Of a DNA stretch of 64,000 bases, positions 54,655 through 61,854 are shown piece after piece. The notes beneath the pieces were generated by a model. The model was given only the letters and a program-made list of their open reading frames with translations. It was not told where the DNA came from and made no database searches. A program made the position numbers and the translations under genes. The stretch is from the sequence record OM135583.1. One strand, given 5' to 3'. Each line of letters opens with the position of its first letter. The stretch's first letter is position 1. This DNA comes from Escherichia phage EP01.

Positions 54655-55619
54655 TGTATTCTTTAGAGGAATTTAATAATCAAGCAATAAACGCAGATTT
54701 CCAACGTAATAATATGTTTAGCTGCGTTTTTGCGACAACTCCATCAACTAAAAGCTCTTCGTTGATAAGTTCAATTAGCAACTTTTCTTATAATAACTTG
54801 GGCCTAAATTCAGATTGGTTAGGATTAACTCAAGGCGATATTAATCAGGGAATTACCACGCTAATTACTGCTGGCACACAAAAACTGATAAGAAAATCAG
54901 GGGTTAGTAAATATCTTATTGGTGCCATGAGTCAACGTACAGTTCAAAGTTTATTGGGCTCATTTACAGTTGGTACATATTTAATTGACTTCTTTAACAT
55001 GGCATATAACTCATCTGGATTGATGATATATTCTGTAAAAATGCCAGAGAATAGATTATCCTATGAAACTGACTGGAACTATAATTCTCCTAATATTCGT
55101 ATAACTGGGAGAGAATTAGACCCTTTGGTTATTTCATTTAGAATGGATTCAGAAGCATGTAATTATCGTGCAATGCAAGACTGGGTTAACGCTGTTCAAG
55201 ACCCAGTAACTGGATTGCGTGCTTTGCCACAAGATGTCGAGGCAGATATTCAGGTTAATCTTCATGCTCGTAATGGATTACCTCATACTGCGGTGATGTT
55301 CACTGGATGCATTCCAGTGTCAGTGAGCGCTCCTGAGTTATCATATGATGGAGATAACCAAATAACTACATTTGATGTTACTTTTGCGTATAGAGTCATG
55401 CAGGCTGGATCGGTTGATAGACAAGCTGCGCTTGAGTGGCTTGAATCTGCTGCTATAAACGGTATTCAAAGCGTTCTCGGAAATAGTGGAGGTGTTACTG
55501 GACTATCTAATTCGCTTTCACGACTTAGTAGATTAGGAGGAACTGCGGGAAGCATTTCAAACATTAATACTATGACGGGAATTGTCAACTCGCAAAGTAA
55601 AATATTAGGAGCAATATAA
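54654..55619 (+). CDS. 54: baseplate-tail tube initiator gp54
   Basis: 321 aa; synteny; terminator downstream. Confidence 0.9.
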   Translation: MYSLEEFNNQAINADFQRNNMFSCVFATTPSTKSSSLISSISNFSYNNLGLNSDWLGLTQGDINQGITTLITAGTQKLIRKSGVSKYLIGAMSQRTVQSLLGSFTVGTYLIDFFNMAYNSSGLMIYSVKMPENRLSYETDWNYNSPNIRITGRELDPLVISFRMDSEACNYRAMQDWVNAVQDPVTGLRALPQDVEADIQVNLHARNGLPHTAVMFTGCIPVSVSAPELSYDGDNQITTFDVTFAYRVMQAGSVDRQAALEWLESAAINGIQSVLGNSGGVTGLSNSLSRLSRLGGTAGSISNINTMTGIVNSQSKILGAI

Positions 55620-55623
55620 CAAT

Positions 55624-55652
55624 GGGGACCTTTCGGTCCCCATATTTTTATT
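55624..55652. terminator. bidirectional terminator after gene 54
   Basis: GGGGACC-TTTC-GGTCCCC followed by ATATTTTTATTT. Confidence 0.7.
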
Positions 55653-55938
55653 TACGGAATGAAATAAAAGCAGCAACTGAAGCAACTAAACTGTCTTCAA
55701 TATAAACTTCAATTTTTACCGGAGCTTCTGATTCAAATTTACCTGTTACTACACCATGGAAAATGCTTTCAGTCTGTTCTGGCTTTGAAAAATTTTCAGA
55801 AGGAAAAATTCCGAACTTTTTATCTGTTCCAAAAATTTTGATAAATTCATCGTAAACTGCTTCATTAAAAGCGTTATCAGCAGGAATAACGCCTTCAACT
55901 ACAAGTTCTTGACCTAAAAAGCGTAAAGAAGATTTCAT
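55648..55938 (-). CDS. hypothetical protein downstream of alt genes
   Basis: 96 aa ORF. Confidence 0.55.
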   Translation of the reverse strand: MKSSLRFLGQELVVEGVIPADNAFNEAVYDEFIKIFGTDKKFGIFPSENFSKPEQTESIFHGVVTGKFESEAPVKIEVYIEDSLVASVAAFISFRK

Positions 55939-55998
55939 TTTGTGTTCCTCATGTTATGTCAGTAAGATTATTATAACACAACACGAGGGACTTGTAAA

Positions 55999-58056
55999 CT
56001 ACATTTTGAACTTTTTAGACATTCCGTTGATGTTAATCAAAGAAGCCAAGATTTGAGAAACTTCGTTTTCCTCTTCTTTTGATTCTTCTACAAGGAATTG
56101 ATTAAATCCAGCCATTGGACGAACTTCACCAGTTTCCATCAGGTGGTCGCCATCATATACCGATTCTTCTAATTGTTCAGAAGGAGGAACGATTGTGCCT
56201 TCGATTAGATACTTGTTATAAGCAGTTTCTTTCATCATGTACGTACTCACTTTATTAATCTTCAGCAAAATTCCACGTGGTAAAATAACTTCAGCTTCTG
56301 ATGGAAATCCTGATAAATGACCCGGAACGATAACTTTGATTCGCTCAGCTCCTTTAATTACCATACCCACGCTAGTTTCAGCATCTTCATTCGCATAAGC
56401 AGAGTGACTGCCCATATGCATCAAATCTTCTGCGTCAACTGAACCTTCTCCTTCACCAGAAAATACTGCACCGGAATCATCTAGAGCCATATAGTTTTTA
56501 CCATACTCACCGAAGATATTTGGTTTAAGCGATGTTGATACGAAGTTCTTGAAATAGAACATTCTATTTTCAATATTATGACGTAAAGTTTTAAAGGTAA
56601 CTTCTTGTCCACGGTAAAGTGTAGTTCCTGGAGGAAGAACTGATCCTTTGGCAAAGGCAGAATCCATTGTCTCGATGTGTTTAATAGCTCGTTCCATATA
56701 TTCTTCACGGGTAGAATCTGGTTTACCTAAAAGGAACGAGTTCATTTCAACATATGAATCTGCACAATAATCTTCAATTACATCAGACTCAGCCTGAGTT
56801 AATCCTTTTGGGGGTACTTCAGTACTTGCATATTCATACGCTTGAGAAGCAGACTCATTAATCAATTTATAAATGCCATTCATGACAAATTGAACAATAG
56901 CTACCTTTTCATCTGGCGTGGCTTTAGAACCTTTAACTAAATCATTGACGATTTTCTTAATAACATCAAAGCTATTAGAAATATTAATGTCAGCAAGATC
57001 GCTTAAAATTTTATCAGTTTTATAATCAAAAAATTCTTTATTCTTTAAATATTCTTGAGAACCTTGATATGTTATATCGCTCTGTAACTTGATAGATGGA
57101 TCACGTAAACGTGCATGAGCCAATGCAATATGATTTCGGAAGCTTTCTAGTTCATAATCATTAGATTTAAAACGAGAAGCACTTCTCATACCACCGATAG
57201 CTCCTTTGCTGAAGTTTGAACCAACCTGAATAACGCCAGAGTTCATTGGTCCTTCTGCTTTATATACTGGAACTTTAGATTCAAACTCTTGATATTTCTT
57301 AGCAGCGAAGCTATCACCCTGAAGTGAAGCATCGACAGTAGAATATTGAGCTTGTGCTGCTAATCGACGACTAATTTTAGTTTTCTGAATTACAGCTTGA
57401 TCCGTGCGCTTATCATTTTCTAAAGCAATAGAAGCAGCAACAGCAACAGCTTTAGGAACAGCATTACCTGTTTTAACGTCTACATAAACATCACCAACCT
57501 TTGATTCAACTTTTGTGAATAACTCAGTTGAAATAGGAGGTACACCTGGAATGTCTTCTAAATTGGCATTTTTACGGTAAACCATAATATATGCATATTT
57601 CTTATCATAGTCCCAGATTTCCTTTAAAAGAACATATCGACCTGCTCCTTTAGTACGCACTAAACGGTCGGCAATAACTTGCATTTGACGAGCAGCGCCA
57701 TTTGTTTTACTCTTTAATACGCGGAATAGGCATGCGTCAATTTTGTACTGTTTCATTGTTTGAAGAGCAGTATCAAAAACCGCATTAATGACACCAATTG
57801 GATTTCCACCCAAGTTTTTAAGTTTAACTAATGATAGTTTCTCGTTGACACCTATCATTACGATATGCATCATTTTATCGCCTGGCTTAACGTTTTTATT
57901 TGTATCACCACCAGAGGTGTATGTACAAAATCTAAATCCAGGAAGCACGCTTTCTTCACCGGCTTGAATAGCAAAAATTTGAGGTATTTTATGCTTAGGA
58001 TTTAAGTTAACAACCGGCGCCGAAGCGCCGTCAAATAATTCTGTAATAAGTTCCAT
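55999..58056 (-). CDS. Alt-family ADP-ribosyltransferase paralog
   Basis: 685 aa; first ~230 residues closely parallel the upstream alt gene (MELITELFD..., KMMHIV, QYKIDAC, RYVLLKE.WDYDKKYAYI); C-terminal R...STS...E-x-E motifs (YRGQE, FVSTSL, SEAEVILPRG). Confidence 0.8.
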   Translation of the reverse strand: MELITELFDGASAPVVNLNPKHKIPQIFAIQAGEESVLPGFRFCTYTSGGDTNKNVKPGDKMMHIVMIGVNEKLSLVKLKNLGGNPIGVINAVFDTALQTMKQYKIDACLFRVLKSKTNGAARQMQVIADRLVRTKGAGRYVLLKEIWDYDKKYAYIMVYRKNANLEDIPGVPPISTELFTKVESKVGDVYVDVKTGNAVPKAVAVAASIALENDKRTDQAVIQKTKISRRLAAQAQYSTVDASLQGDSFAAKKYQEFESKVPVYKAEGPMNSGVIQVGSNFSKGAIGGMRSASRFKSNDYELESFRNHIALAHARLRDPSIKLQSDITYQGSQEYLKNKEFFDYKTDKILSDLADINISNSFDVIKKIVNDLVKGSKATPDEKVAIVQFVMNGIYKLINESASQAYEYASTEVPPKGLTQAESDVIEDYCADSYVEMNSFLLGKPDSTREEYMERAIKHIETMDSAFAKGSVLPPGTTLYRGQEVTFKTLRHNIENRMFYFKNFVSTSLKPNIFGEYGKNYMALDDSGAVFSGEGEGSVDAEDLMHMGSHSAYANEDAETSVGMVIKGAERIKVIVPGHLSGFPSEAEVILPRGILLKINKVSTYMMKETAYNKYLIEGTIVPPSEQLEESVYDGDHLMETGEVRPMAGFNQFLVEESKEEENEVSQILASLININGMSKKFKM

Positions 58057-58059
58057 GAT

Positions 58060-60153
58060 TTATCCTTGAACGAACTTGTAAGGCATGTTTGTAATATCTA
58101 TGCAAGACGCAATAATTCCGAGAGATGATTCTGCTTTCTGTTTAACATTTGATGAAACAAATGATGCAAAGTCAACTCTGTCTTCTATTTCAATATCACC
58201 TGTCATTGCAACTACTTCACCGGTTTCCATTAGACGGTCACCGTCATAAATGACTGATTCGGTGAGTTCTTCCGTAGTCATAACTTCAGCTTGAATGAGT
58301 TTTGTGTTATTAGATGTTGTTCCGTCATTATTAGAAGCATCAGTTATTTTATTAACTTTGACCATCAATCCGCGTGGTAGAATTACTTCAGCTTCTGTTG
58401 CTATTCCGAGACTCCCTGGATATACAACATTAACTTTATGAGCTCCATCAATTGCCCATCCTATTTGAACTTTAACGTATTCAGGATTTTCTTTATACGC
58501 TCTTATTTCGTTCGGATTAATAGTTATTCCTTCTTCATTTTTATCAACTGTTAATTCATTACGAGCTTCTGGTTCTAAAAGACCGATACCAGCATGTGTA
58601 ATTCCAAAACGTCCAAAAATGATAGGAGTTAAAGAAGTAGATACAAAATTTCTGAAATAGAACACTTTATTTTTAACTAGTGCTTCGTATATAGGAGCAG
58701 TCATACTTTGAGCACGATAAACTGTAATGCCTTCTGGTATACGGTCACCATTTTCAAAAGCTGAATCTAAATTATTTATCGCAGATTCAATTTCTTTTTC
58801 ACTCATTACATCATATCGTTCTGGATTGTAGCGGCCTAAAAGAAGATTATTGATGTCAGTATATCCTGATCCACAATATTCTCTAATGCCGCGCTTTTGC
58901 GATGGAGTATATTTAGAACCATCACGTGCAATGGTAATATCAATCATTGGACCTGCACCAATTCCAGAAAAGCTGTAAATCATTCTTTTGAGGAATTTAG
59001 TTTTTGCTGCGTTCCAGGAATTTTTAGTTATTTCTTCCCAGACTTCATCTGGCTGTCCTTTACGGGTTTTATTATGTTTATCAAGCCAAGTATCTTTATA
59101 TTCTTCAAAGAATTTATTAATAGCTGCTGCATACTTCTCTAAACATTTTATTGAAGTAGTTGGTTCATTTTTAATCGCATTAAGAATTACATCTTTAATT
59201 TTTTCAGAAACTTCATTAACCTCACTTTTTGAAAAGAATTTATAATCATAGTGAAGTTCATCTGCAGTTCCTTCGGCAATAATTTTTGCTGCTTTAGTTT
59301 TAGAAGCTAATGAATTAATTCCAAGTTTCATTTCTTCTGCTTCAGGAATTAAAGGAGCTGTAGCAGGTTTATTGAAATTAGCTGCGGTAGATTCATACTT
59401 CTGAAATAATTCATTTTCAAATCTAGAAGATTCTAATGATTGACTTTGCGCAATTGCTCTACGGGAAATTTTAACTTTAACGATTACAGCTTGGTCAGAA
59501 CGTTTATCATTTTCTTGCGCAATAGATGCTGCAATTGCCTCATTTTTAGTTACTTGGGCTCCAGTATCTTTATTGATATAAACATCGCCGACCTTCGATT
59601 CAACTTTAGTAAAGAGCTCGGTACTAATTTCCGGAACTCCTGGAATGTCTTCTAGTGATACATTTTTGCGATGTATAAGAATATATGCATACTTTTTATC
59701 GTAATCCCAGAGTTCCTTAAGAAGGACGTATCTGCCACCTGAACGACTACGGATAAGTCTATCAGCAATAACTTGAATTTGTCGAGCTTGGCCAGCAGTT
59801 TTAGACTTAAGAATACGAAGCATGCAGGCATCAATTTTATACTGACGCATCGTTTGCATCGCAACAGTAAAAACTGAATTGATGTAATTAATTGGGCTTG
59901 GACCGAGACCTTTCAATTTAGCAATTGAACCTTTAGCAGTTAATGTAAAAGGAACAATGTGCATCATTTTATCGCCCATCTTTAGATCACGGTTAGTATC
60001 ACCTCCAGATGTATAGGTACATAAACGAAAGCCTGGTTGTTCAATTGCGTCATCAACATGAACTGAAAAAATTTGCGGTATTTTCTTCTTTGGATTTAAG
60101 TTTGTAATCGGAAGAGTAGTATCTTCGTCAAATAATTCTGTAATGAGTTCCAT
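58060..60153 (-). CDS. alt: Alt ADP-ribosyltransferase (virion-packaged, injected)
   Basis: 697 aa from second Met; R-S-E motifs (VYRAQS, FVSTSL, TEAEVILPRG); TATAAATA late promoter about 20 nt upstream on the minus strand. Confidence 0.8.
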   Translation of the reverse strand: MELITELFDEDTTLPITNLNPKKKIPQIFSVHVDDAIEQPGFRLCTYTSGGDTNRDLKMGDKMMHIVPFTLTAKGSIAKLKGLGPSPINYINSVFTVAMQTMRQYKIDACMLRILKSKTAGQARQIQVIADRLIRSRSGGRYVLLKELWDYDKKYAYILIHRKNVSLEDIPGVPEISTELFTKVESKVGDVYINKDTGAQVTKNEAIAASIAQENDKRSDQAVIVKVKISRRAIAQSQSLESSRFENELFQKYESTAANFNKPATAPLIPEAEEMKLGINSLASKTKAAKIIAEGTADELHYDYKFFSKSEVNEVSEKIKDVILNAIKNEPTTSIKCLEKYAAAINKFFEEYKDTWLDKHNKTRKGQPDEVWEEITKNSWNAAKTKFLKRMIYSFSGIGAGPMIDITIARDGSKYTPSQKRGIREYCGSGYTDINNLLLGRYNPERYDVMSEKEIESAINNLDSAFENGDRIPEGITVYRAQSMTAPIYEALVKNKVFYFRNFVSTSLTPIIFGRFGITHAGIGLLEPEARNELTVDKNEEGITINPNEIRAYKENPEYVKVQIGWAIDGAHKVNVVYPGSLGIATEAEVILPRGLMVKVNKITDASNNDGTTSNNTKLIQAEVMTTEELTESVIYDGDRLMETGEVVAMTGDIEIEDRVDFASFVSSNVKQKAESSLGIIASCIDITNMPYKFVQG

Positions 60154-60176
60154 CATATCCTCTCTAGTGTTTATTC

Positions 60177-60184
60177 TATTTATA
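60177..60184 (-). promoter_or_regulatory. late promoter TATAAATA (alt)
   Basis: Plus-strand TATTTATA, about 20 nt upstream of alt ATG on minus strand. Confidence 0.65.
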
Positions 60185-60189
60185 AAATT

Positions 60190-60207
60190 AAAGGCCCGAA
60201 GGCCTTT
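60190..60207 (-). terminator. UUCG tetraloop hairpin between the 62-aa ORF and the alt promoter
   Basis: Plus-strand AAAGGCC-CGAA-GGCCTTT. Confidence 0.5.
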
Positions 60208-60394
60208 AATAATCTAATGGTAAGAGAGTACGATATATTTCAAACTTTGGACCTTTTTCATAGGCATCAAATGTTTCTGTGAATTTATTATAAGCATATG
60301 CATCTACAAATTCGAGAATGACTTGTGATACAGAAGTAGAAACATCTCCACCTTCTTTTTGAGCAATGACAATTGTTTCTAAGTAAGCTTTCAT
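60206..60394 (-). CDS. hypothetical small protein
   Basis: 62 aa ORF between gene 30 and alt; start overlaps gene 30 stop. Confidence 0.5.
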   Translation of the reverse strand: MKAYLETIVIAQKEGGDVSTSVSQVILEFVDAYAYNKFTETFDAYEKGPKFEIYRTLLPLDY

Positions 60395-61854
60395 AGACCA
60401 GTTACCTCATGAAAATCACCAAATACATCCTCGAATGTATTAGCTTTAGTTTTATCTTCACGTAAACGAATCGCAATCGGAAGAAATAATTTAACGTAAT
60501 CAGTGCGGCCATCAGATTTTAACCAACCGTTGCATTCGCACTCTAGAATTTTTCCAATATAATAATTTTGGTTTTCCATAATGCGAGTACGGTCAAGTTC
60601 ATGTGATTTTACACCGGCTTTATCTTTTAAGCCTGAACCAGCATTTACTTTAATTTTTCCACATTCTGATTCAAGAATAAATCCACCCGCTTTAGTAGGG
60701 TCTTTACGGTGAGGATAAATTCCTACAATTTTTAAATCAACATCAATTACTTCTTTAAATTTATAGAGATTTTTTGAACGAGCATTTTCCCACAATCCAT
60801 CGGTATTTTTGAGAATAATACCTTCAAGACCTTGGTCAATATATTTTTTATAAATTACCTTAGCTTCATCTAGGTTATTTACTACCTGGTTTTCAATTAA
60901 AATTACTTTATCATATACTGATGTCATTTGTTCTAGTTTAGAAAAACGTACATCATATTTTAAACGAAACGCCGGAAGACCGTATATTTCTACCAACGGG
61001 ACATAATCCCAGACCTGAAACTTCATGCATTGAGCTTCTTTTTCAGAAATGGTTCCTTTTAAGGATTTATTGGCGATTCCATTAGAAGTAGTACGAGATT
61101 CCGCTACTTCGGCGAATTCATTAGCTTTACTAATTTCAGGATAAGCATCAAAAAGAAAATCTAGGCCTTCTGGTTCCTTTTTAACTTGCTCATGGTATAC
61201 CAATTCACCATCGATTAACACACCTTCTGGATGAATCTGGCGGGCTTCAGCAGTCATTTTGATTAACTCTTCCTTAAGAAGATCTAATCCTAGATATTCA
61301 TTACCAGCTCGTGATAAAAGACGAACATCATCTAATTCATCTCCTCGGACTTCAGCAAAACACCGAGCTCCATCTGCTTTTAACTGCGCAAAAGCTGGAA
61401 ACTTGATATTCTTACTAATGCCTTTTTCATCATAAGAACTTGCCAGCATTTGAGGTTGTTCAGGAATTAAACCTGGCCAAACTTTGTTTGCAATAGATAC
61501 TGAAGCACCGCATTCAAGGTCTCGCATCATCACTCGACGTAAAACTTCAACATCATCCTTTTTACCATCAGTGATATATCCAGTTAATTCCTCAATTGCT
61601 GCATTTCCAGTCAATTTCCGAGTAGCTAACGTGAATTCAATGAAGTCAAGCATATCGGTAATAGTCAGCATTCCAAAACTCTGGGTAGCAATACCAGGTT
61701 TAGGCCATTTCTTGATATAATACTGTAACCCACGAGAATAAGTCAGACGATATACTCGTTTAAGCAATTCATTATTTTTATTCTTTTCAAGAATTGCTTG
61801 CTTCTGTTTAGTTGATCCAATAGATGCTATTTCATTCAGAATTTTAAGAATCAT
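60391..61854 (-). CDS. 30: ATP-dependent DNA ligase gp30
   Basis: 487 aa; adenylation motif KADG (FAQLKADGARCF); matches my recollection of T4 DNA ligase. Confidence 0.97.
   Translation of the reverse strand: MILKILNEIASIGSTKQKQAILEKNKNNELLKRVYRLTYSRGLQYYIKKWPKPGIATQSFGMLTITDMLDFIEFTLATRKLTGNAAIEELTGYITDGKKDDVEVLRRVMMRDLECGASVSIANKVWPGLIPEQPQMLASSYDEKGISKNIKFPAFAQLKADGARCFAEVRGDELDDVRLLSRAGNEYLGLDLLKEELIKMTAEARQIHPEGVLIDGELVYHEQVKKEPEGLDFLFDAYPEISKANEFAEVAESRTTSNGIANKSLKGTISEKEAQCMKFQVWDYVPLVEIYGLPAFRLKYDVRFSKLEQMTSVYDKVILIENQVVNNLDEAKVIYKKYIDQGLEGIILKNTDGLWENARSKNLYKFKEVIDVDLKIVGIYPHRKDPTKAGGFILESECGKIKVNAGSGLKDKAGVKSHELDRTRIMENQNYYIGKILECECNGWLKSDGRTDYVKLFLPIAIRLREDKTKANTFEDVFGDFHEVTGL

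Follow-up and report, generated by a model that had tools for sequence, protein, structure and literature searches.

A tandem pair of Alt-family ADP-ribosyltransferase genes in Escherichia phage EP01, coding for two probable packaged effectors

The alt locus of Escherichia phage EP01 (sequence record OM135583.1) holds two tandem, full-length genes of the Alt family of ADP-ribosyltransferases (ARTs), here called AltA (upstream copy) and AltB (downstream copy). All positions are numbered over the whole 64,000-nucleotide (nt) stretch analysed, hereafter the window, in which the locus lies on the minus strand. Our preferred reading, to which we give a probability of roughly 0.7, is that the pair forms a late two-gene operon coding for two packaged, gp21-processed and injected arginine mono-ADP-ribosyltransferases, which would share their delivery parts and act on different or partly overlapping substrates. 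Taken alone, the proposal that AltA and AltB have different targets stands, as judged from their sequences, at slightly better than even odds. The 4.85-kb stretch around the pair aligns over its full length, at 94-98% DNA identity, with hundreds of phage genomes, and the EP01 stretch is T2/T6-like Tequatrovirus. The two genes are:

58060-60153, minus strand: AltA, 697 amino acids (aa), the positional ortholog of T4 alt with a T2/T6-type central and catalytic cassette.
55999-58056, minus strand: AltB, 685 aa, corresponding to alt.-2 of RB32 and to the same gene of T2 and T6; its JS10 ortholog is altb.

An earlier reading of this DNA from its letters alone (the sequence-only reading) had proposed two tandem full-length Alt-family genes of 697 and 685 codons, both with the N-terminus MELITELFD, and the open reading frame (ORF) listing together with matches to phrog_802, PF03496 and PF26846 bears this out. 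A longer AltA ORF, 58060-60156, codes for 698 aa and starts with MM, there being two in-frame ATGs (60156 and 60153). A GAGG box lies 5 nt from the second of these and 2 nt from the first; the start is the second ATG (60153), giving 697 aa, in agreement with the mapping of ITE-6 in T4 Alt and with nearly all annotations, including that of T4 alt. The AltA stop codon TAA (58062-58060) is followed by ATC and then by the AltB ATG at 58056, so that the proposed 3-nt gap between the copies is confirmed by reading the sequence.

Family membership is clear for both proteins. The profile phrog_802 (Alt-like RNA polymerase ADP-ribosyltransferase) matches residues 1-685 of AltB at 8.6e-255 and residues 1-696 of AltA at 3.1e-272, while Pfam PF03496 (ADPrib_exo_Tox) scores 129.2 bits (1.6e-37) on AltA and 71.6 bits (7e-20) on AltB at a cut-off of 23.4 bits, both matches being far beyond chance. 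No NCBIfam model matches AltA or AltB. The phage-specific domain PF26846 was found on the N-terminal part of P0001 (the representative of the cluster at 98% identity), on all full-length relatives and on an AltB-effector fusion protein, the assignment being taken from the precomputed Pfam annotation of near-identical database proteins. The parts of the two proteins were placed as follows:

59440-60153, minus strand: AltA N-terminal domain, aa 1-238, including the MELITE propeptide and the gp21 site ITE-6.
58258-58917, minus strand: AltA ART domain, aa 413-632, ending at the gp21 site LTE-632.
58708-58722, minus strand: AltA Arg480, in VYRAQ 478-482.
58630-58647, minus strand: AltA S-T-S 505-507, in FVSTSL 503-508.
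58369-58395, minus strand: AltA E587-A-E589, in EAEVILPRG 587-595.
58063-58257, minus strand: AltA C-terminal propeptide, aa 633-697, with the motif YDGDRLMETGEV; in the alignment it falls on the 63-residue piece that T4 Alt loses after LTE-619.
57343-58056, minus strand: AltB N-terminal domain, aa 1-238, PF26846 (Tevenvirinae_ADPRT), including the MELITE propeptide and ITE-6.
56818-57342, minus strand: AltB helical middle region, aa 239-413.
56164-56817, minus strand: AltB ART domain, aa 414-631, ending at the gp21-type site LEE-631 (56161-56172).
56605-56619, minus strand: AltB Arg482, in LYRGQ 480-484.
56527-56544, minus strand: AltB S507-T-S509, in FVSTSL 505-510.
56272-56298, minus strand: AltB E587-A-E589, in EAEVILPRG 587-595.
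56002-56163, minus strand: AltB C-terminal propeptide, aa 632-685, with the motif YDGDHLMETGEV; predicted to be disordered.

The R/S-T-S/E-x-E arrangement that the sequence-only reading had quoted from both proteins was thus found at confirmed positions, and the residues concerned, i.e. R482, S507, S509, E587 and E589 in AltB numbering, are the same in all 19 aligned family members, whose identity goes down to 42%. AltA matches CdtA and iota Ia at the sequence level, its VYR480 aligning with TVYR of CdtA and its EAEVIL with the catalytic EYEVLL. In the family profile, lyR aligns with YR and E-A-E-V-I-L-P-R with Q-Y-E-L-L-L-P-R of a C3-type enzyme, and the Arg and E-x-E also match CPILE-a, while the S-T-S assignment (FVSTSL in both proteins) is based on position and on the invariance of S507 and S509. 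E-x-E, as opposed to Q-x-E, is the arginine-specific pattern of this ART clade (ARTT motif), and both AltA and AltB would be arginine-specific ARTs. For AltB, an AlphaFold2 (AF2) model with a predicted local distance difference test score (pLDDT) of 73.8 comprises an alpha/beta N-terminal domain (residues 12-225), a helical part (250-470), an ART core (480-622) and a disordered tail (629-685, pLDDT <50); an AF2 model of the N-terminal domain reached a pLDDT of 83 and a predicted template modelling score (pTM) of 0.82. The predicted ART part was matched by Foldseek to Vis (E=5e-7, TMt 0.61), C3bot, Certhrax, CDTa, VIP2 and iota Ia, all with probability 1.00.

Over the whole protein, AltA and AltB are 41% identical (BLASTP, E=1e-162), and this identity is distributed unevenly: 68% in the N-terminal domain (residues 1-238), 18% in the middle region (239-412), which is the most diverged part, 35% in the ART region (413-634) and 45% in the C-terminal tail (635-697). 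The description of a conserved N-terminal third therefore stands, but that of divergent C-terminal halves misses the conserved C-terminal propeptide with its protease site. Between S-T-S and E-x-E both proteins have an insertion of ~75 residues, and in alignment columns 561-600 only six of the 36 aligned positions match; three residues ahead of the first Glu, AltB has Phe, AltA Ile and T4 Alt Ser. Recent gene conversion was considered as the source of the similar N-terminal thirds and rejected, as the number of synonymous substitutions per site (dS) between the two domains is ~1.6, i.e. saturated, their DNA identity is 67% and their longest identical DNA run is 19 nt. The high dS and the short longest run argue that the domain is conserved by selection on the protein and not by recent copying. 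In Dhakavirus JS10, which has the same tandem pair under the names alta and altb, the two N-terminal domains are 66% identical, while orthologs across the two genera reach 46% and non-orthologs 42-43%. The N-terminal domains thus group by genome and not by ortholog, which indicates either concerted evolution in the past or co-adaptation to a partner particular to each genome, e.g. the prohead core.

T4 Alt belongs to the prohead core, where it is present in ~40 copies; the protease gp21 cleaves it, and it leaves the head together with the DNA (PMC9958956; PMC9026906), and mass spectrometry has placed its cleavage after ITE-6 and LTE-619, with the removal of 63 C-terminal residues (PMC5694885). 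Both gp21 sites are kept at aligned positions in AltA (ITE-6 and LTE-632) and AltB (ITE-6 and LEE-631), and also in JS10 alta and altb; in all four proteins, the C-terminal site is followed by an SV(I)YDGDxLMETGE motif. To us, this conservation of sites and propeptide is the strongest sequence-level argument that AltB may take the same route as Alt.

AltB is widespread and maintained. It was found at full length, with at least 94% DNA identity, in 399 of the 497 matching phage records, and its effector region at a minimum of 95% protein identity in 400 records; carriers include T2, T6, RB32, PP01 and AR1. The novelty of a second alt that the sequence-only reading implied is overstated, since the gene is annotated in ~400 public genomes, as 'Alt-like RNA polymerase ADP-ribosyltransferase', as alt.-2 in RB32 and as a coding sequence noted 'alt.-2' in T6, and since tandem alt duplications in 44RR and RB49, along with alt.-1/alt.-2 of T4, were discussed in 2006 (PMC1524935). 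AltB is thus already known and annotated; a search of the literature on the function of the second Alt returned no functional study, and this one comparative-genomics paper of 2006 that touches on it. Copies in RB32, T2, T6 and PP01 are 94-98% identical to AltB at the DNA level, with the same length (685 aa), the same position and no structural difference. Among seven Tequatrovirus orthologs, all of 685 aa, pairwise dN/dS (nonsynonymous over synonymous rate) is 0.03-0.06 at dS 0.09-0.26, and neither these seven nor JS10 altb, the ortholog in the other genus (47% overall identity, same tandem order), contain stop codons or frameshifts.

Signals for expression of the pair were identified as follows:

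60177-60184, minus strand: T4-type late promoter TATAAATA, 24-31 nt upstream of the AltA start; a promoter is annotated at the same position in Lutter.
58063-58067, minus strand: AAGGA, Shine-Dalgarno-like site for AltB, inside the 3' end of AltA and 6 nt before the AltB ATG.
60190-60207, minus strand: G+C-rich hairpin AAAGGCCTTCGGGCCTTT followed by a T run, overlapping the alt.1 stop codon; annotated as a terminator in Lutter.
55622-55643: bidirectional hairpin terminator between alt.-3 and gene 54, the first one downstream of the alt operon; annotated in Lutter.

In a scan of 55600-60400, the copy of TATAAATA at 60184-60177 is the sole exact match on the minus strand. An own late promoter for AltB was rejected, as no exact TATAAATA precedes it and the closest site with one mismatch lies ~440 nt upstream. 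No terminator-like site was found between AltA and AltB, and the view that only the upstream copy has an evident late promoter, serving both genes, is in keeping with these results. The hairpin at 60190-60207 is probably the terminator of the upstream (alt.1) transcription unit, directly after which the late promoter is situated.

The sequence-only reading had asked whether T4 annotates a second full-length alt gene at this place. It does not: the T4 record lists alt (682 aa), followed by alt.-1 and alt.-2, ORFs of 61 and 67 aa (L002 5066-5451), which are a frameshifted and deleted remnant of the downstream gene. These ORFs are colinear with the first ~116 AltB codons at ~96% DNA identity, the frame being split by a 1-nt deletion in an A run, and 1,699 bp are missing exactly between two 9-bp direct repeats, CTAAAAAGT, that lie at nt 340 and 2039 of intact AltB (RB32, T2 and T6). 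The fragment families phrog_23015 and phrog_15247 (alt.-1/alt.-2) also match AltB (2e-40 and 3e-38, respectively) better than AltA (1e-21 and 2e-19). While the T4 record explains alt.-1/alt.-2 as the opening part of alt, duplicated long ago, the DNA comparison identifies them as an AltB remnant; likewise, the annotators of RB32 and T6 noted an 'apparent insertion in alt.-2' relative to T4, whereas our comparison gives the opposite, i.e. a deletion in T4. The same truncation boundary occurs in ~97 records, which suggests one event spread by recombination. In the EP01 stretch, the equivalents of the CTAAAAAGT repeats are situated at 56010-56018 and 57709-57717, the first copy not being exact here.

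T4 also differs from EP01 in the first gene. T4 Alt (P12726) and AltA are 99.6% identical in the N-terminal domain (1-238) and 92% in the C-terminal propeptide, with both gp21 sites kept, but 32% in the middle region and 67% in the ART region, where dS is saturated as opposed to 0.13-0.20 in the flanks. The comparison covers 58258-59439 (AltA middle and ART), L002 5455-7503 (T4) and L009 1145-3229 (JS10). In its catalytic cassette, AltA is the T2/T6 allele and not the T4 allele. The T2-type cassette occurs in T2, T6, RB32, PP01 and Lutter, and the T4-type also in KNP5; all four combinations of AltA allele and AltB state are found in Tequatrovirus genomes. By evenly spaced sampling of the hit list, the T2-type with intact AltB (the EP01 stretch, T2) makes up ~50%, the T4-type with intact AltB (KNP5) ~22%, the T2-type with deleted AltB (Lutter) ~8% and the T4-type with deleted AltB (T4) ~10%. 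Furthermore, the T2-type ART cassette of AltA shares 93% protein identity with that of JS10 alta (dS 0.52), but the N-terminal domains of the two proteins only 46% (dS saturated), and this difference speaks for ancient alleles and for an exchange of ART cassettes between genera.

On the preferred reading, transcription would run from the single late promoter at 60177-60184 through both genes, so that AltA and AltB would be made during prohead assembly, AltB being translated from its own AAGGA site 3 nt past the AltA stop. Each protein would consist of a MELITE propeptide with a ~230-residue alpha/beta domain restricted to T-even-like phages (PF26846), a helical middle, an ART of the C3/VIP2 type and a C-terminal propeptide of ~55-65 residues. 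If T4 Alt is a guide, both proteins may be brought into the prohead core by the N-terminal domain that they share and by their propeptides, and gp21 would trim each of them there, at ITE-6 and at the C-terminal site, which is LTE-632 in AltA and LEE-631 in AltB. Once mature, the enzymes would be ejected with the DNA and, using host NAD+, would modify arginines of host proteins in the first seconds of infection. As the delivery parts are constrained while divergence has affected the middle region and the loops that lie between S-T-S and E-x-E, among them the ARTT turn, the enzymes would most likely hit different or partly overlapping host proteins. The suggestion of the sequence-only reading that the second copy is an injected effector with another target is thus plausible, although sequence does not disclose a target.

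Several points weigh against this reading. The literature searched holds nothing showing AltB in virions, cleaved, active or with a given target. Searched singly with phmmer against solved ARTs, AltB gave nothing at E<=0.01, and its link to solved ART structures needed a profile search and a predicted fold. ADP-ribosylation of Arg265 of the RNA polymerase alpha subunit is documented for T4 Alt only, from which AltA differs by 33% in the ART region and 68% in the middle; because its catalytic cassette is not the T4 allele, this activity is an extrapolation for AltA. Alt itself is non-essential in T4 (PMC9026906), and since T4 grows without AltB as well, any role of AltB would be accessory. Finally, overlap or redundancy of targets is quite possible, because loops do not predict ART specificity and because T4 Alt is promiscuous. 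On the last point, Depping et al. are said to have found in 2005 that T4 Alt modifies many substrates.

Such redundancy can be taken further, to an AltB that is a packaged and active dosage paralog with essentially the substrates of AltA (RNA polymerase alpha etc.), kept for dose or for robustness across hosts. The identical catalytic motifs with the same EAEVILPRG block, the common delivery signals, the loss of AltB from T4 without obvious harm and the promiscuity of T4 Alt would all agree with this. We nevertheless consider it unlikely, as the two lineages have been separate since before the split of Tequatrovirus and Dhakavirus, with effector regions that are 18-35% identical and each under strong purifying selection, while pure redundancy would predict decay, or homogenisation along the whole length and not of the N-terminal domain alone. 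Even less probable, in our judgement, is an AltB that is an active ART but not injected, and instead acts late in the producing cell, e.g. on host or phage proteins in assembly. AltB keeps the N-terminal domain, ITE-6, the C-terminal LxE site and the propeptide motif tied to head incorporation of T4 Alt, features for which a cytoplasmic enzyme has no evident reason; expression from a late promoter would fit such a role, as would the absence of virion proteomic evidence for AltB from the literature searched.

That AltB is catalytically inactive, i.e. a pseudoenzyme kept as a component of the core or scaffold, or a gene on its way to being lost as in T4, is very improbable. It has indeed gone from T4 and ~20% of the relatives, and its Pfam score is below that of AltA (71.6 vs 129.2 bits), but the catalytic residues are all invariant, dN/dS over the whole length is 0.03-0.06, the seven Tequatrovirus orthologs and JS10 altb are intact, and the predicted ART fold is a confident one. 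The preferred reading of two injected enzymes can also be extended: AltB may have a host target of its own (e.g. a defence protein or a toxin), and the Alt N-terminal domain may be a portable capsid-delivery module behind which effector cassettes are exchanged. We hold this extension to be doubtful, though less so than any of the three alternatives above; if true, the loss of AltB from T4 would add to the phenotypic differences between T4 and T2/T6 on wild hosts.

A few database proteins and contigs carry chimeras of the two genes. The proteins P0004, P0006 and P0007 join an AltA-type N-terminal part to an AltB-type C-terminal part, with junctions near residues 108, 190 and 222. In a 65-kb contig from the read archive (Logan SRR24155011; L010 5001-7055), one such fusion stands between alt.1 and alt.-3 with no other alt gene beside it, and the change in its DNA from AltA-type to AltB-type is a clean one, at nt ~546-557 within the TKVESKVGDVY block that both genes have. 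For the fusions of P0004 and P0007 (L011 and L012), the contigs stop 29 nt past the gene. No isolate genome among the best matches from 501 records has a single-gene AltA/AltB fusion, the top matches being the two-gene arrangement in two pieces; the fusion genes are therefore unconfirmed, and could be a rare product of unequal crossover between the tandem paralogs or an assembly artefact.

The N-terminal domain was also followed on its own. Its profile identified 73 cluster representatives in 1.84 billion proteins, nearly all matched at the N-terminus, and of ten representatives scanned, six had PF03496 and four no Pfam domain. Relatives of the domain at the sequence level that have no recognisable ART domain are P0180, P0182, P0183 and P0187. 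Furthermore, the predicted fold of AltB residues 1-245 (57322-58056) gave weak Foldseek matches in BFVD (E 1e-7 to 1e-5, template modelling score ~0.5) to large uncharacterised proteins of the phages Erwinia phiEa2809, Dickeya RC-2014, Vibrio VP-1 and Agrobacterium Atu_ph07, some of which carry zeta-toxin, deaminase or ParB domains. The idea that the domain carries many other types of effectors was set aside, as it found little sequence-level support in the ten scanned representatives and weak structural matches only.

The surroundings of the pair keep the conserved position of the family, i.e. gene 30 - alt.1 - alt - (alt.-1/-2) - alt.-3 - gene 54. On the minus strand, the gene order in EP01 is gene 30 (DNA ligase), alt.1, AltA, AltB and alt.-3, while genes 54 and 48 are on the plus strand and convergent with the alt unit. 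The two small neighbors are:

Next to AltA on its upstream side, minus strand: alt.1, 62 aa, PF24647.
55648-55938, minus strand: alt.-3, 96 aa, DUF5498.

A strong promoter resembling sigma-70 and early T4 promoters, matching at 11 of 12 positions (TTTACA, a 17-nt spacer and TATAAT, with an upstream TG), is found at 55970-55998 on the minus strand. It begins right after the AltB stop, faces alt.-3 and is annotated as a promoter in Lutter; alt.-3 would therefore have a promoter of its own besides any late read-through.

The alt gene pair itself is ordinary and already annotated. What is known of injected phage ARTs comes almost entirely from T4, which is atypical in this respect, having lost the second enzyme and carrying a minority allele of the first. 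In the majority of sequenced T-even-like coliphages, T2 and T6 among them, two different ARTs should reach the host within the first seconds of infection, and T2 and T6 offer a direct route to the targets of the second enzyme. The substrates of AltB and of T2-type AltA would widen the picture of host takeover, and could explain differences in host range or sensitivity to defence among therapeutic T4-like phages. Candidate tags for loading cargo into T4-type capsids are also provided by the conserved N-terminal domain and the two propeptides.

Of the known systems, T4 Alt is the closest: its gene lies in the same place (between gene 30/alt.1 and alt.-3/gene 54), behind the same late promoter, and its product has the same four-part architecture. 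Between T4 Alt and AltB, identity is only ~42% over the whole length; it falls from 68% in the N-terminal domain to 36% in the ART region and 10% in the middle region. T4 Alt has also been reported to ADP-ribosylate MazF. The other phage ARTs of T4, ModA and ModB, likewise serve host takeover, but are small, expressed early and without a packaging domain. C3bot, Vis, Certhrax, CDTa, iota Ia and VIP2 (PF03496) share the R/S-T-S/E-x-E site and the fold with the Alt proteins, and the E-x-E is like that of the arginine-specific iota Ia, CDTa, VIP2 and Vis. Identity to these C3-like and binary-toxin ARTs is 15-20%, and the Alt proteins differ in the ~75-residue insertion, the phage-specific N-terminal domain and the propeptides, as well as in delivery, which is by the phage capsid and not by secretion or a pore-forming B component. 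Iyer et al. (PMC9503650, PMC5512222) have described ARTs that are packaged in the head, either fused to MuF or as part of polyvalent proteins. As in Alt, an effector domain is there joined to a module for incorporation into the virion, but the MuF-fused enzymes have another head module; the N-terminal domain of Alt is a small family of its own.

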